The position numbers and the translations under genes were made by a program. This document shows positions 31,805 to 39,742 of a stretch of DNA of 64,000 nucleotides, one piece after another (the first letter of the stretch is position 1; the number at the start of each line of letters is the position of its first letter). The notes below the pieces were generated by a model that was given only the letters and a program-made list of their open reading frames with translations, ran no database searches and was not told the origin of the DNA. The stretch comes from an uncultured Pseudomonadota bacterium (lineage in GTDB: Bacteria > Myxococcota_A > UBA796 > SXON01): contig CAIQVJ010000041.1 of NCBI GenBank assembly GCA_903875225.1, positions 18,113 to 82,112 on the forward strand, in the 5' to 3' direction.

Positions 31805-32004
31805 GCCTCATGGGGAGGGCCGCCTGGCGGCGCTCCCCGTCCCGCCGCACGATCGGCCCCAGAGTGGATCGACCGCGGCGAGTTGGCGTGTCCCCTGGGG
31901 AGTTCGCCCCGGGCCACACCTCCGCTGTCCCGCCCCGGTTGGGGCACCCTGTCGACACCTCGCCACTCGCGGCATACCCGCCGCCGCTCACTCCCGGAAC
32001 CGCT

Positions 32005-33822
32005 TTGTCTGCAATCATCCCGATCCGAAATATCGCCATCATCGCCCACGTCGACCATGGCAAGACCACGCTCGTAGACGGGCTGCTCAAGCAGGCCGGC
32101 ACCTGGCGCAGCAACGAACACGTCATCGACCGCGTCATGGACTCGATGGATCTGGAGCGTGAGCGCGGCATCACCATCATGGCGAAGGTCGCCTCCGTCC
32201 ACTACAAGGGCGTCAAGATCAACATCGTCGACACACCAGGGCACGCGGACTTCGGCGGCGAGGTCGAGCGCACCCTGAAGATGGTCGACGGCGCGATGCT
32301 GCTCGTGGACGCCTCCGAAGGTCCGCTCCCCCAGACGCGTTTCGTGCTCCGTAAGGCGCTCGAGGCCGGCCTCTCGATCATGGTGTGCATCAACAAGATC
32401 GACCGGCCCGACGCCCGCATCCCCGAGGTGATGAACGAGGTGTACGACCTGTTCATCGATCTCGGCGCGACCGAGGAGCAGATCGACTTCCCGGTCATCT
32501 ACGCCTGCGCGCGCGATGGCTGGTGTACCCGGGATCCCGAGGTCAAGGGCCCCGACTTCCAGCCGCTGTTCGACACGATCGTCGACCGCATCCGCCCTCC
32601 CAAGGCCGATCCCGATCACTCGCTCCAGCTCCTGATCACCCAGCTCGACTACGACAACTTCCTCGGCCGCATCGCGATCGGGCGGCTGTTCAACGGCGTG
32701 TTGCGCGAGAAGACCGACCTCCTGCTCTACGGCGAGAACGGCCCGCGCAAGGTCCGGGTCAACCAGCTCTTCACCTTCGAAGGCATGAAGCGCATCCCGG
32801 CCTCGATGGTCGAGTCGGGCGACTCCTGCGCCATCGCGGGCATCCCCGAGATCAACATCGGGGACACCATCACCCTGGTCGACAATCCGAGCCCCCTGCC
32901 GCGGCTCACGGTCGACGAGCCCACGATCGGCATGACGTTCTCGTCGAACAACTCGCCGTTCTCGGGCCGCGAGGGGAAATACGTCACGGCCCGCCAGATC
33001 CGCGAGCGCCTCGAGAAGGAGATGCTCACCAACGTGGCCCTCCGGCTCGAAGACACGGGCAGCTCCGAGACGATGCGCGTGTTCGGCCGCGGCGAGCTGT
33101 AGCTCGCGATCCTCATCGAACAGATGAGGCGTGAAGGCTACGAGATGAGCGTCTCGAAGCCCGAGGTCAAGATCCGCGAGGAAGGCGGCCGCAAGCTGGA
33201 GCCCTACGAGGACGCCCAGCTCGACTTCCCCGAGTCCTTCATGGGTGTCGTCACCCAGAAGATGGCGCTGCGAAAGGGCCGGATGACCGAGATGAAGTCC
33301 GACGGCTCCGGGCGCGTTCGGCTCAACTTCCGCGTTCCTGCTCGGGGCCTCATCGGGTTCCGTGGCGAGTACCTGAACGACACCCGGGGAATGGGACTGC
33401 TCAACACGATCTTCGACGGCTGGGACGACTGGGCCGGGTTCATCCAGGCGCGGATCCAGGGCTCGCTCATCAGCGACCGCACGGGCAAGGCCACGACCTA
33501 CGCGATCTGGCACCTCCAGCCGCGTGGTCGGCTGTTCATCAGCCCCGGCTGCGAGGTCTACGAAGGCATGATCGTCGGTGAAAATGCTCGTGAGAACGAC
33601 ATGATCATCAACGTCGTCCGTGAGAAGCACCTCACCAACGTGCGCGCGTCCGGCGCCGACGAGAAGCAGATCCTCGTCCCGCCGATCCAGGTCACGCTGG
33701 AGAAGGCCCTGGAGTACCTCTCCGAGGATGAGCTGGTCGAGGTCACGCCGGGCAGCATCCGCATGCGCAAGAAGCAGTTGCAGGGCAACCTGCGGTCGCT
33801 GGTTCGGACCGAGCGGGACTGA
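32005..33822 (+). pseudogene. typA: Translational GTPase TypA/BipA interrupted by one in-frame TAG
   Basis: G1 [10 protein letters not shown]3 DTPGH and G4 NKID motifs. Both ORFs (31801-33102 and 33124-33822) are in the same frame. The sequence reads ...[20 protein letters not shown] where homologues have GRGEL(H/Q)L. The proposed start is TTG at 32005 ([16 protein letters not shown]) and is uncertain. Confidence 0.85.
33100..33102 (+). other. In-frame amber stop codon inside typA
   Basis: The codon series is GGC GAG CTG TAG CTC GCG ATC. A single C-to-T change of CAG (Gln) would produce it. Confidence 0.9.
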
Positions 33823-35976: not shown

Positions 35977-36906
35977 ATGTTCACGCTGCTGCTCGCCTTC
36001 TCCACCCTCGCAAGCGCCCAGACCACGGGCATCCTCGGGGTGCGCTACACGGATGGTTCGGTCGCCACCTGGGCGGTGACCGACGAGGGCGAGGTCACCC
36101 GGCTCGGCTCCGGGATCGCGGTCCCGACCGCGCAGGGCTGGGCCGTCGTCGACCGGATGACCATGAGCCGGGCGCCGGACGCCACCGAGGACGTGCTGCG
36201 CATCGGGCCCGCCGGTCACCTCCCCGCGCTCCCCGGCCCCTGCGCGGGCGACGACGTGGACAACGTTCGGACCGAGACGCCCGACGCCAGCTACTCCGAC
36301 AGCATCACGATCCTTTCGGTCAGCCCCACGCTGCTGACCTACGAGGTCTCGGGCAACGCCTGGACCGGCGGCGCGCACCCGGGCGCCTGGGACGACGTCT
36401 ACGCGGTCGCCATCCCGTCCGGCACGGCCGTGGCGTTCGGCGACGTGTTCAAGGGGCAGGACGCCGCGTTCATGATGGCATCCAACGCGAGGTCGGCGAC
36501 CATGACCGCCGAGGAACGCTGGTGCTTCGAGGGCGACGCGAGCGAGTGGGCGCTCGTGCGCTCCGGCGGGCACTGGGTCGCCCGGGGACGGTTCGCGTAC
36601 GGACCGCAGGCGTGCCGCGGTGCCTCGCTCGACTTCACCGTTCCCATCGCAATCCCGGCGTCGGTGACGGGCCCGGACAGGCTCGTGGACAGGCTCCCCG
36701 CGGGAGCAATCGACGAGGTGCAGAGCCCCGACGGGTTGATCGACGTGCTCGTGACCCCCGCCGGGCTGACGATCTCCGCCCCCGACGAAGAGGGCCTCGT
36801 CATCGCCAGGGCCGGCGCGCAGATCGTCATGGCCCAGTGGGCGACGGGGGATGCCGCGGTGCGGTGGCCGATGGAGGCGATGCTGGCGCTGGAGGCGCCT
36901 CGTTAG
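35977..36906 (+). CDS. Secreted DUF3298/RsiV-like protein
   Basis: Signal peptide MFTLLLAFSTLASA. The TGGAHP motif (SGNAWTGGAHPGAW) is characteristic of the DUF3298 / PdaC-RsiV C-terminal fold. Confidence 0.7.
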   Translation: MFTLLLAFSTLASAQTTGILGVRYTDGSVATWAVTDEGEVTRLGSGIAVPTAQGWAVVDRMTMSRAPDATEDVLRIGPAGHLPALPGPCAGDDVDNVRTETPDASYSDSITILSVSPTLLTYEVSGNAWTGGAHPGAWDDVYAVAIPSGTAVAFGDVFKGQDAAFMMASNARSATMTAEERWCFEGDASEWALVRSGGHWVARGRFAYGPQACRGASLDFTVPIAIPASVTGPDRLVDRLPAGAIDEVQSPDGLIDVLVTPAGLTISAPDEEGLVIARAGAQIVMAQWATGDAAVRWPMEAMLALEAPR

Positions 36907-37389
36907 CTACCGCTGGAAGTCGCGCCCCTTGACCGTCTTGCGGCCGTCCGCCCGTGCAACGCGAATCGCGGCGTCCGCATGCGCCCGCACGATGTCCGAG
37001 AGCGCATCGAGCACGTCCGCGGAGGTGTTCATGTCCGCCTTGTCCGCGATGTACTGCTTGAGTCGCGAGGCGACGATCAGGATGTCGTCGGTGACGGGCT
37101 CGGGCGGGGCCGAGGGCACGATCCGGCGCCGGGCCTCGCCGGCCGGCTCGCTCGCCTGCGGGCTCGTGGCCTTGACCGTGACGAGGGTGGACTCCTCGCG
37201 CGGCGCCCGCTCCTCCTCGCACCACGCGTCGCGGTGGTTCATCACCGGCACGTGCGCGTCCCAGCAGCCCGGGCAGCAGAAGACGAGGCCGGTCCGCGCG
37301 CGGTTGCACGTCGAGACCGAGCACACCTGGTAGAGCTGGCCGTGCGCGATGGGCTTCTTGCAGGAGCTACAGAGTCGCCAGGTGCTCAT
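36907..37389 (-). CDS. ZZ-type zinc finger fused to a histone-fold domain (bacterial histone-like protein)
   Basis: N-terminal Cys/His cluster C7-x2-C10...C23-x4-C28...C38C39-x2-C42-x3-H46-x5-H52. The C-terminus SRLKQYIADKADMNTSADVLDALSDIVRAHADAAIRVARADGRKTVKGRDF resembles archaeal HMfB ...EAIKLARHAGRKTIKAEDI. Confidence 0.8.
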   Translation of the reverse strand: MSTWRLCSSCKKPIAHGQLYQVCSVSTCNRARTGLVFCCPGCWDAHVPVMNHRDAWCEEERAPREESTLVTVKATSPQASEPAGEARRRIVPSAPPEPVTDDILIVASRLKQYIADKADMNTSADVLDALSDIVRAHADAAIRVARADGRKTVKGRDFQR

Positions 37390-37427: not shown

Positions 37428-38096
37428 CTACTGCGACGAAGGCGCGCCACCGGAGTCGTGCGCGCCCGCGTGCCCGCTGCCGTGCTCGCCCATCTGGTCG
37501 CTGCCCGTGTCCCTGCCCGTGTCGTCCCCATCGTCCGGATCCTCGCAGTCCTCGCAGGCCAGCGAGCCCTCGGCCTCCTCGGCTTCGTCCAGCCAGGAGT
37601 CGCCATCGTCGTCCTTGTACAGGGCTGTCCCTGCCTCGAGGAGCACGGCGATCTCGGAGTCCGAACCGGTCTGCCAGGTGGCGGCATCGACCCAGTTCGC
37701 CGCCCCGAAGCGCAGGACGAGCGAGCCGTTGGTGGAGAACGAACCTACGACCACCACGCTCGATACCGGCACGGTGCGCTCTACACCGGCGGCGGTGAGA
37801 GCGATGCCGCCCGGAAACTTGAACGTCAATGCGGTCCACTCGCCCGGCGGGGGCTGGATCGACGTGTCGGAGAGCAGGTTGAGGGTGGCGTCCGTCGCCA
37901 GCGTACAGGTGGTGTCCGCGCCGGTCAGCCAGACCGTGGAGGCATCCCCCGTGGCCGAGGTGAAGTCGACGCCGTCGCCGTTGGCCAGCTGCAGGGCCAG
38001 GACCGTCGGGTTCCCTACCGCGATGCCCTGGTCGGGCTGCGGGATGCACCCCATGACGCCGAACACCGAGAGCGCGAGGAGCCGACCCTGAATCAT
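37428..38096 (-). CDS. Lipoprotein with acidic C-terminal tail
   Basis: MIQGRLLALSVFGVMGC lipobox. The ATG overlaps the upstream stop (ATGA). C-terminus is DDDGDSWLDEAEEAEG...DPDDGDDTGRDTGSD. Confidence 0.75.
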   Translation of the reverse strand: MIQGRLLALSVFGVMGCIPQPDQGIAVGNPTVLALQLANGDGVDFTSATGDASTVWLTGADTTCTLATDATLNLLSDTSIQPPPGEWTALTFKFPGGIALTAAGVERTVPVSSVVVVGSFSTNGSLVLRFGAANWVDAATWQTGSDSEIAVLLEAGTALYKDDDGDSWLDEAEEAEGSLACEDCEDPDDGDDTGRDTGSDQMGEHGSGHAGAHDSGGAPSSQ

Positions 38097-38932
38097 TCCG
38101 AGGGCATCGTAAGCGGAAACAGGTTGAGGTTCACCTGGTACACGACCTGCCGCTGTCCGGCTGCCCCGTCGCAGCGCTCGAGGAGTCGCTCCTGGAACAG
38201 GTCGATCTCCCGCTTCAACTCGGGGAGCAACGCGGGCGCGACCGAGACTGTGAGCGCCGAGAAGTGTCGTTCAGGAGCAGCGATTCGCAGGAGCGCCTCC
38301 CGAGCCCTGTCCAGCATCGCCACGTGGTAGCTCACCGCTGCCATGCTCGCGACCTCATGCGGGGTCGCGAAGCTGCCCGGCACCGAGACGGTCCTGCCCT
38401 CGCGCTCCTCGAGCATGCCGAGCGCCCGGAGCACTTCGAGCCCCTGGGCCGCCTGCTCCGGGGTGATGGCGGGACGCAGTCGCGGGGCGAGCCACTCCGG
38501 ATCCGCCTTGAAGCCGGTGCAGGACCCGTACTCGTGGATCGCGGCGATGTACCAGCGGGTGAGCACCTGCAGGGACTCGTTCCCGAGGCGCACGGCCTCC
38601 CGGAAGCGCACCGTGGCCCGGACCCGCTCCTCGGCCGCCGCGCGCTGGGCGGGACTGTCGGAGTGCTCGGCGGCGACGAGCGCAGTGAAGTACTCGCCGG
38701 ACTCGAAGTCGAGGTTCAGCGCCTTCAGGAACCCCTCGGTGGTGGTGGCCGTGAGGTTGCGCTGGCCGTCGATCACCGCCAGCAGCAGGCTCGGCGACGA
38801 GATCCCTGCGCGCCGCGCGAACACCCGGTTGCTGTACCGGGGGTACACGGTCTTGATCCACGCGAACCACGCCGCGAGGAACGTGCGGTAGGACGAAAAC
38901 CGGTAGATGTCGGGCTGGGGGGCGGGGGGCAT
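38093..38932 (-). CDS. TIGR02147/DUF4423-family putative HTH regulator
   Basis: DIYRFSSYRTFLAAWFAWIKTVYPRYSNRVFARRAGISSPSLLLAVIDGQRNL is the typical N-terminal HTH region of this family, which is abundant in Myxococcota and Bdellovibrionota. Confidence 0.75.
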   Translation of the reverse strand: MPPAPQPDIYRFSSYRTFLAAWFAWIKTVYPRYSNRVFARRAGISSPSLLLAVIDGQRNLTATTTEGFLKALNLDFESGEYFTALVAAEHSDSPAQRAAAEERVRATVRFREAVRLGNESLQVLTRWYIAAIHEYGSCTGFKADPEWLAPRLRPAITPEQAAQGLEVLRALGMLEEREGRTVSVPGSFATPHEVASMAAVSYHVAMLDRAREALLRIAAPERHFSALTVSVAPALLPELKREIDLFQERLLERCDGAAGQRQVVYQVNLNLFPLTMPSE

Positions 38933-39012: not shown

Positions 39013-39636
39013 CTACCAGCTGGCGGTGGCGTGGAGCGTGTTCGACCGGTTGCCGGCGGCGTCCAGGACGTACATGTTCACGTCGTAGGTCGAGCTGGTG
39101 TCGAGCCCGTCCAGACCGAACATGAGCTCGGTGCCCCAGGTCACGCAGATGAAGGCGCTCCCCCCGCAATCGAACCCATCGACGATCGGAAGGTCGACGT
39201 CGGGCGGGCCACCCCCGGTTCGGTTGTCGACGAAGGTGGCGAACAGTTCGCCGCCGCCGAGGTCGCCCTGCGGGTCGGTGGCCGCCACGTTGATCATCGA
39301 CTGCGAGGAGCTCAGGTAGTAGGTCCCGAGCGAGATCAGGGTCGCGCCGTTCGGGTCACCGTCGGTGTCCGCATCGGAGTCCGAATCGGCGTCGGTGTCC
39401 GTGTCCGCATCGGAGTCGGAATCGGCGTCGGTGTCGGTGTCGGCATCCGAGTCGGAGTCGGCGTCGGTGTCGGCGTCCGAGTCCGTGTCGGCATCCCCGT
39501 CGGTGGCCGTGTCGTCTCCGTACACGATCCGCACGCAGCTGCCATCTTCGGTCTTGCCATAGCCTGTGGCGCACGGCTCCTCGGTGCAGCCGAGCGGGAG
39601 CAACAGGAACAGGAATGGCAGCAGGGGGCGGATCAT
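39013..39636 (-). CDS. Lipoprotein with a long Asp-Thr/Ser repeat tether
   Basis: ATG at 39636 with AAGGAG 7 nt upstream. MIRPLLPFLFLLLPLGC lipobox. It has about 50 aa of (D[AST])n repeat followed by a globular C-terminal domain. Confidence 0.8.
   Translation of the reverse strand: MIRPLLPFLFLLLPLGCTEEPCATGYGKTEDGSCVRIVYGDDTATDGDADTDSDADTDADSDSDADTDTDADSDSDADTDTDADSDSDADTDGDPNGATLISLGTYYLSSSQSMINVAATDPQGDLGGGELFATFVDNRTGGGPPDVDLPIVDGFDCGGSAFICVTWGTELMFGLDGLDTSSTYDVNMYVLDAAGNRSNTLHATASW
39355..39517 (-). repeat. Hexanucleotide-periodic coding tandem repeat with 30-36-nt superunits, encoding DADTDSDADTD...
   Basis: Units begin GTCGGTGTC at 39361, 39391, 39427 and 39463. All six frames stay open across it, which produces shadow ORFs. 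Confidence 0.85.
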
Positions 39637-39742
39637 CGGGCGTCTCCTTCGTTGAGAGGACTTGTCCATCCGGCGGGGGCCAGGAGGCCGCACCGGGAGG
39701 GGAAGTGTAGCATGATGGTCGGGCGGGGCTGACCCGGGGCGC

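Follow-up and report, generated by a model that had tools for sequence, protein, structure and literature searches.

The reading frame at 36907-37389 (minus strand) of a 64-kb stretch of DNA, here called the window, raised the question of whether a bacterial gene joins a ZZ-type zinc finger to a truncated histone fold, as an earlier note on this DNA had proposed, and what such a protein might do. Bacterial histones have been recognised recently, and only the stand-alone ones (HBb, HLp) have been studied so far.

The coding sequence consists of 160 codons and a TAG stop, with the ATG start at 37389. GC content at codon positions 1, 2 and 3 was 65%, 53% and 95%, respectively, in a window with 69.6% GC, and a database search with the 160-aa protein returned 750 homologues at E ≤ 1e-3. 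The reading frame proposed earlier is thus a real gene, and a chance open reading frame or a wrong frame was ruled out by the third-position GC together with the homology. Most of the homologues were 145-185 aa long and aligned end to end with the window protein, and their N-termini all lay near the same M-x-x-W, indicating that the in-frame upstream extension (to 38049) lies outside the gene. Conservation was counted over 118 aligned relatives. The gene at 36907-37389 encodes a ZZ-like zinc domain joined to a shortened histone fold. A second histone gene was sought in the 64-kb window, and none was found.

This architecture is identical to that of the 'ZZ histones' defined by Schwab et al. 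2024 (Nat Commun, PMC11390915), whose example is Haliangium ochraceum D0LYE7, and the window protein is almost certainly a member of the family. Like D0LYE7 and Bd3044, it has an N-terminal C4 plus C2H2 domain, a disordered linker and a C-terminal HBb-like alpha3 fold, and its C4 plus C2H2 ligand spacing matches the Haliangium numbering given in that paper. In full-length alignments it showed 50% identity to a copy on the Bdellovibrio bacteriovorus chromosome (L077; residues 4-159) and 46% identity to a Haliangium sp. copy (L084). The former is presumably Bd3044, because Bd3044 is the longer second histone of B. bacteriovorus, which according to Hocher et al. 2023 cannot readily replace Bd0055. 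Compared with other ZZ histones, the window copy has two extra non-conserved cysteines, C39 and C57, and carries V144 where about half of the family has Arg, and nothing essential differs. It is a typical copy of the family and represents no new kind of system.

According to Schwab et al. 2024 (PMC11390915), the B. bacteriovorus ZZ histone is expressed at a very low level and is of very low abundance, and a 2025 preprint placed the peak of bd3044 expression late in growth phase. Such expression data for Bd3044 were all that we found in the literature to 2026, and our searches turned up no ZZ histone that had been studied biochemically or genetically; the earlier statement that these fusions had been catalogued yet remained uncharacterised was therefore correct.

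A scan of one genome per GTDB species revealed at least 574 loci encoding such proteins. Most of the 80 matches listed carried names of Bdellovibrionota or Myxococcota lineages, including a complete B. bacteriovorus chromosome and a Haliangium MAG, and the nearest named relatives of both the window ZZ histone and the TypA protein of the same window were Myxococcota/Myxococcales MAGs. The window copy itself belongs to an uncultured, Myxococcota-like bacterium. Among the bacterial histones, the ZZ histones are the one family in which an accessory domain is built in, and the carriers are predatory and social bacteria, among them the culturable B. bacteriovorus and Haliangium. The interest lies in an experimentally untouched family rather than in this locus. 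New here are the spread over at least 574 reference species, the near-exclusive pairing of the zinc domain with the histone fold, the lack of a conserved neighbour and the relatives with tandem folds.

The histone fold

The alpha3-truncated histone fold spans residues 101-158 (36916-37089, minus strand). In an AlphaFold2 model built on an alignment of the relatives of the window protein, pLDDT over this region was 87-96, and DSSP assigned residues 107-118 to alpha1, 125-147 to alpha2 and 155-158 to a one-turn alpha3, with the chain ending at residue 160. The C-terminal peptide quoted in the earlier note was found in the translation as residues 107-160; it is 54 aa long rather than about 65 aa, and it does not begin at helix 2 but holds the whole fold, from alpha1 through L1, alpha2 and L2 to the single turn of alpha3.

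A phmmer search of PDB sequences matched residues 102-158 to Bdellovibrio HBb, that is Bd0055 (8fvx, 8cmp), with an E-value of 4.6e-9, and the family profile built from the 118 relatives reached 3.7e-17 against the same protein. With the single sequence, Leptospira HLp matched at 5.6e-5, Thermococcus HTkC at 8.5e-4 and HMfB at 0.31. Foldseek against the PDB placed the HBb structures 8fvx, 9ezz and 9f0e on top (TMt 0.87-0.93, rmsd 0.8-1.0 Å, 41% identity), followed by HLp (TMt 0.91), with HMfB far behind at a TMt of 0.59. In the curated libraries only sub-threshold matches were obtained, namely Pfam CBFD_NFYB_HMF (E 0.087) and NCBIfam archaea_histone (E 0.0016). The structure and profile searches that had been suggested as a check recovered the histone fold with HBb as best match, which bears out the proposed alpha3-truncated, Bd0055-type histone. 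Over its C-terminal 58 residues the window protein thus has a complete alpha3-truncated fold, nearest to that of Bdellovibrio HBb.

The loop-2 residues R150-K151-T152 (36934-36942, minus strand) lie in an RxTxxxxD motif that ends at D157 and reads R150-K-T152-V-K-G-R-D157 in this protein, and R150, T152 and D157 were each invariant (118/118). The earlier note had recognised the RKT motif but let the protein stop right after it; eight residues follow, and they contain the Asp of the RD clamp (R150/D157) and one helical turn. R150, K151, T152 and D157 correspond to R51, K52, T53 and D58 of HBb, and the extra Asp, D148 (HBb D49), is D or E in 113 of the 118 relatives. The dimer-interface positions L110, L130, V134 and F158 were hydrophobic throughout, and the position of the HBb interface residue L38 was variable in the family (118 relatives).

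The HBb residues that touch DNA in the HBb-DNA crystal structures are listed in Hu et al. 2024 (PMC11317129), and all contacts of the histone fold are with the phosphate backbone. We transferred these contacts onto the phmmer alignment with an offset of 99. In alpha1, HBb S9, K10 and K12 became S108 (116/118), R109 (R or K in 118/118) and K111 (117/118); between L1 and alpha2, T23, S24 and A25 became T122 (99/118), S123 (109/118) and A124 (87/118); and in the L2-alpha3 region, K52, T53 and R57 became K151 (K or R in 111/118), T152 (118/118) and R156 (116/118). The sole contact position that differed was HBb T8, which is A107 in the window protein.

The window protein thus shares with HBb (8fvx, 8cmp, 9ezz, 9f0e) the fold, the one-turn alpha3, the RD clamp with its extra Asp, the KT loop and nearly all DNA-contact residues at 41% identity. 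HBb, however, is a stand-alone protein of about 64 aa that is highly abundant and apparently essential, whereas the window protein adds a 100-aa N-terminal extension, and the Bdellovibrio ZZ orthologue is lowly expressed and cannot readily compensate for HBb loss (Hocher et al.). HBb-type 'bacterial dimer' histones are stand-alone proteins of about 60-65 aa, and the window protein has 160 aa; because of its 100-aa zinc domain and linker, it was filed under the ZZ histones, the sister group of the 'bacterial dimer' subfamily.

The same truncated fold is found in the Leptospira face-to-face (FtF) histone HLp (9qt0-2), which forms DNA-wrapping tetramers via an Arg/Asn pair (Schwab et al. 2024, PMC11390915). 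In our own mapping on the phmmer alignment, this pair corresponds to V144/D148 in the window protein, and the Asn position is D or E in 113 of the 118 relatives; the FtF tetramer type was ruled out by these residues. With archaeal HMfB (1a7w), the core of the histone fold and the RKT and RD-clamp motifs are shared, but the similarity is far lower. In HMfB alpha3 is full-length and alpha2 is longer, and these helices support tetramer and hypernucleosome contacts. Nucleosomal histones are defined by a full-length alpha3 and a four-helix-bundle dimer-dimer interface, and alpha3 of the window protein is a single turn.

Seven relatives (P0128, P0142, P0170, P0202, P0229, P0230 and P0252) carried a single zinc domain and, C-terminal to it, a tandem pair of alpha3 histone folds separated by 7-20 aa, and one such protein was complete inside an NCBI MAG contig (L085:102-926). 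The RKT loop was degenerate in the second fold of some of them. Judged from their sequences, these proteins appear to be natural single-chain pseudodimers. They are absent from the main text of Schwab et al. 2024 (PMC11390915).

The zinc domain and the linker

The N-terminal domain comprises residues 1-63 (37201-37389, minus strand) and is predicted to be a two-zinc, ZZ-like cross-brace. Eight putative ligands, C7, C10, C23, C28, C38, C42, H46 and H52, were invariant in 118 of 118 relatives. The Cys/His spacing quoted in the earlier note (C7-x2-C10, C23-x4-C28, C38C39-x2-C42-x3-H46-x5-H52) was correct; within this cluster, however, C39 is kept in only 6 of the 118 relatives, and the third pair is C38-x3-C42. 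The other extra cysteine, C57, was also poorly kept (44/118). From the cross-brace order, site 1 would be formed by C7/C10/C38/C42 and site 2 by C23/C28/H46/H52. W43, W56, F37, V25, S26 and P63 were also invariant.

In the full AlphaFold2 model the pLDDT of the zinc domain was 94-98, and its mean was 87.5 when the domain was modelled separately. The model showed two beta-hairpin knuckles and a helix at residues 40-50, and a compact ZZ/MYND-like module is thus confidently predicted. Among the relatives, mean pairwise identity reached 67% in the zinc domain and 63% in the histone fold and was 25% in the linker, and the net charge of the zinc domain averaged +4.3 (range +1 to +8) across the family.

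The relationship of this domain to the ZZ fingers was examined with structure and profile searches. The best matches of Foldseek in the PDB were ZZ domains, namely p62 (5yph/6miu), BIG (9lgr), p300/CBP and KCMF1, and MYND domains (ZMYND8/11, SMYD) came after them with similar scores. None of these was significant: over all matches E ranged from 0.28 to 10, with TM 0.4-0.6 (best 0.45-0.61) and rmsd 3.5-5 Å, and for the top ZZ matches 5yph, 6miu and 9lgr E was 0.28-1, with TM 0.45-0.61 and rmsd 3.5-4.7 Å. Foldseek against viral structures gave no significant match. On the sequence side, Pfam ZZ (PF00569) did not match the window protein or 38 relatives at E ≤ 10, a search of PDB sequences with the zinc-domain profile found no ZZ chain and nothing relevant, and hhalign of this profile with the p62 ZZ, the sequence of which was checked against the PDB, gave a probability of 3.5%. 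Other curated families were also considered, and Pfam and NCBIfam returned only sub-threshold noise (zf-FCS/MYM, VATC, C1_2, zf_VAL1_N). Likewise, no significant similarity to any known DNA-reading finger was detected by profile, Pfam or Foldseek searches. The earlier 'ZZ-type' label is therefore supported at the level of the fold: the cross-brace ligand pattern is there and ZZ domains are the best, if non-significant (E ≥ 0.28), structural matches, but no profile match was obtained and the ZZ pocket is absent. 'ZZ-type' is a fair name in this sense and is the established one in publications, and the domain lies outside the curated ZZ family.

Eukaryotic ZZ domains (p62/SQSTM1, HERC2, p300/CBP, ZZZ3, KCMF1, BIG) and MYND domains have the same eight-ligand cross-brace order, and their ligand spacing differs from that of the window protein (C-x4-C, C-x3-C, H-x5-H). 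In the short hhalign alignment with p62 (probability 3.5%), S8 and K11 stood opposite D129 and N132, which we take to be pocket residues of the p62 ZZ structures. After the fourth Cys the window protein reads N29-R30-x-R32, without an acidic residue. By alignment, the acidic pocket that receives peptide N-termini in eukaryotic ZZ readers thus appears to be absent, being replaced by Ser, Lys and Arg in a domain that is basic. Schwab et al. 2024 (PMC11390915) also described the ZZ peptide pocket as not conserved in ZZ histones. Reading of peptide N-termini by this domain should not be assumed.

In the Haliangium sp. copy (L084:3424-3969), numbered from its Met, the ligands are C20, C23, C36, C41, C51, C55, H59 and H65, and position 53 is Val. 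Schwab et al. 2024 (PMC11390915) gave the fourth C4 ligand of D0LYE7 as C53 (HMM C43). If D0LYE7 is numbered like this copy, its fourth C4 ligand is probably C55 (HMM C45).

A profile of the zinc domain only, searched against 1.84 billion representatives, retrieved 305 clusters. Among the 149 examined, 66 had a histone fold and 83 had none, and nearly all of the latter 'ZZ-only' clusters were contig-end fragments, frameshifts or chimeras. This result indicated that the zinc domain is essentially confined to fusions with this histone fold. Two proteins, P0137 and P0148, combined a ZZ-like domain with unrelated C-terminal regions, that of P0137 ending in sequence resembling a type II secretion pseudopilin; either chimeric assembly or a rare alternative architecture may explain them.

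The two domains are connected by a disordered Pro/Ala/Glu-rich linker, residues 64-100 (37090-37200, minus strand), with pLDDT 51-65 and low identity, and its length varied from 21 to 66 aa across the family. Within it, a basic motif, R87-R88-R89-I90-V91 (37117-37131, minus strand), was conserved: position 87 was R or K in 95, R88 was kept in 96 and R89 in 108 of the 118 relatives, followed by two hydrophobic positions (I/V-V). The RRR motif lies 12.9±3.2 aa ahead of alpha1 and 23±10 aa past the zinc domain. Its constrained spacing to alpha1 suggests that it works together with the histone fold, as a short basic tail.

Proposed mechanism and competing readings

The best explanation overall, and a likely one, is that the ZZ histone is a dimeric, DNA-bending nucleoid protein of low abundance, and we regard an HBb-like mechanism of DNA bending as reasonably probable. 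The conserved HBb contact residues and the natural tandem-fold relatives support dimer formation and DNA binding and bending indirectly. By analogy with HBb, two chains would pair through their antiparallel alpha2 helices in a handshake, and the dimer would bend the DNA, touching its phosphates across the minor groove irrespective of sequence. The contacts would be made by S108/R109/K111 of alpha1, T122/S123/A124 of L1-alpha2 and K151/T152/R156 of L2-alpha3, and the RRR motif, as a short basic tail, could add DNA contacts beside alpha1. The two basic zinc modules would hang from the dimer as accessory binding modules; since they appear to lack the acidic pocket, their ligand is more probably nucleic acid or a partner of acidic character than the basic N-terminus of a peptide. 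The low expression of the Bdellovibrio orthologue points to a role that is probably specialised, in regulation or in the local architecture of DNA, and not to the packing of bulk chromatin. Points against this explanation are the Ala at the position of HBb T8, the variability at the HBb interface residue L38, a zinc domain with neither a curated family nor a significant structural match, the lack of a conserved neighbour that would hint at function, and the caution of Schwab et al. 2024 that histone-fold proteins do not all organise genomes.

The low abundance of the Bdellovibrio orthologue, unlike HBb, would also fit a sequence- or structure-selective regulator of the eukaryotic NF-Y kind, in which the dimer bends DNA non-specifically and the zinc modules, the RRR arm or both read certain sequences or bridge a second duplex, at a restricted set of sites. 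Such a regulator would account for a zinc domain that is consistently basic (+4.3) and conserved as strongly as the histone fold, for an RRR motif at a fixed distance from alpha1, and for the weak Pfam and NCBIfam matches, which fall in CBF/NF-Y/archaeal-histone models; moreover, the RKT of the second fold can be degenerate in the doublets, which could be a trait of asymmetric specific binders. We consider this reading unlikely, however, because no evidence of any target sequence and no conserved neighbouring target gene or operon (85 loci) was found, the histone-fold contacts of HBb are all with the phosphate backbone, and the zinc domain has no significant similarity to a known DNA-reading finger. 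If true, Myxococcota and Bdellovibrionota would have a switch of gene regulation or DNA architecture that is built on a histone, not a packaging protein.

Alternatively, the histone fold might serve only as a dimerisation scaffold that does not bind DNA, as in TAF- or DUF1931-like proteins, while the zinc domain brings in a protein partner. As Schwab et al. 2024 (PMC11390915) cautioned, genome organisation may not be the task of every prokaryotic histone-fold protein, and some may have roles outside chromatin; the nearest folds of the zinc domain, eukaryotic ZZ and MYND, are peptide-binding modules. An adaptor of this kind is nevertheless quite improbable, as all HBb DNA-contact positions but one are conserved, several of them invariantly in the 118 relatives, in contrast to DUF1931 proteins, which lack these residues; in addition, both domains and the linker motif are basic, and the acidic pocket in which ZZ readers bind peptides is missing. 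A redox- or zinc-responsive nucleoid protein, whose DNA binding would change upon oxidation or zinc loss as in the zinc-thiolate switches Hsp33 and RsrA, would suit the six invariant Cys in two putative zinc sites and the aerobic predatory or soil lineages of the carriers, but it is very improbable, since no specific evidence for it was found, cross-brace zinc sites are usually structural, and no conserved redox genes neighbour the gene at 85 loci.

Direct handles for a first experimental study of the family are the exclusive zinc domain, which is basic and appears to lack the reader pocket, the RRR motif at its fixed distance ahead of alpha1, the natural single-chain doublets and the lack of an operon partner.

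Neighbouring genes

Upstream of the ZZ histone gene, at a distance of 38 bp, lies a gene for a 222-aa lipoprotein-like protein (37428-38096, minus strand) with an acidic, His/Gly-rich tail, and it overlaps by 4 bases with a DUF4423 (PF14394) gene at 38093-38932 (minus strand). These three genes may be co-transcribed. Their arrangement was common only to contigs of the same organism, and across 85 loci no neighbouring family occurred in more than 10. Promoter-like, terminator-like, Rfam and tRNA scans found nothing near the ZZ histone gene or in the window.

On its other side, the stop of the ZZ histone gene abuts the stop of a convergent plus-strand gene (ending at 36906) at 36904-36909, with zero intergenic bases and no terminator-like hairpin. 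The convergent gene encodes a 309-aa secreted protein without an assigned family. Further upstream, at 39013-39693 (minus strand), a predicted secreted or lipoprotein-like protein of 226 aa (207 aa as called in the near-identical ENA contig L001) contains a long Asp-rich low-complexity run (…DADTDSDADTDADSDSDADTDTDADSD…).

The gene for the translational GTPase TypA/BipA (typA/bipA, 31888-33822, plus strand) has an in-frame TAG at 33100-33102 ('GRGEL*LAILIE'). At this position contig L001 has CAG (Gln), a single C-to-T difference, and the TAG may reflect variation between strains, a nonsense allele or an error in the assembly.
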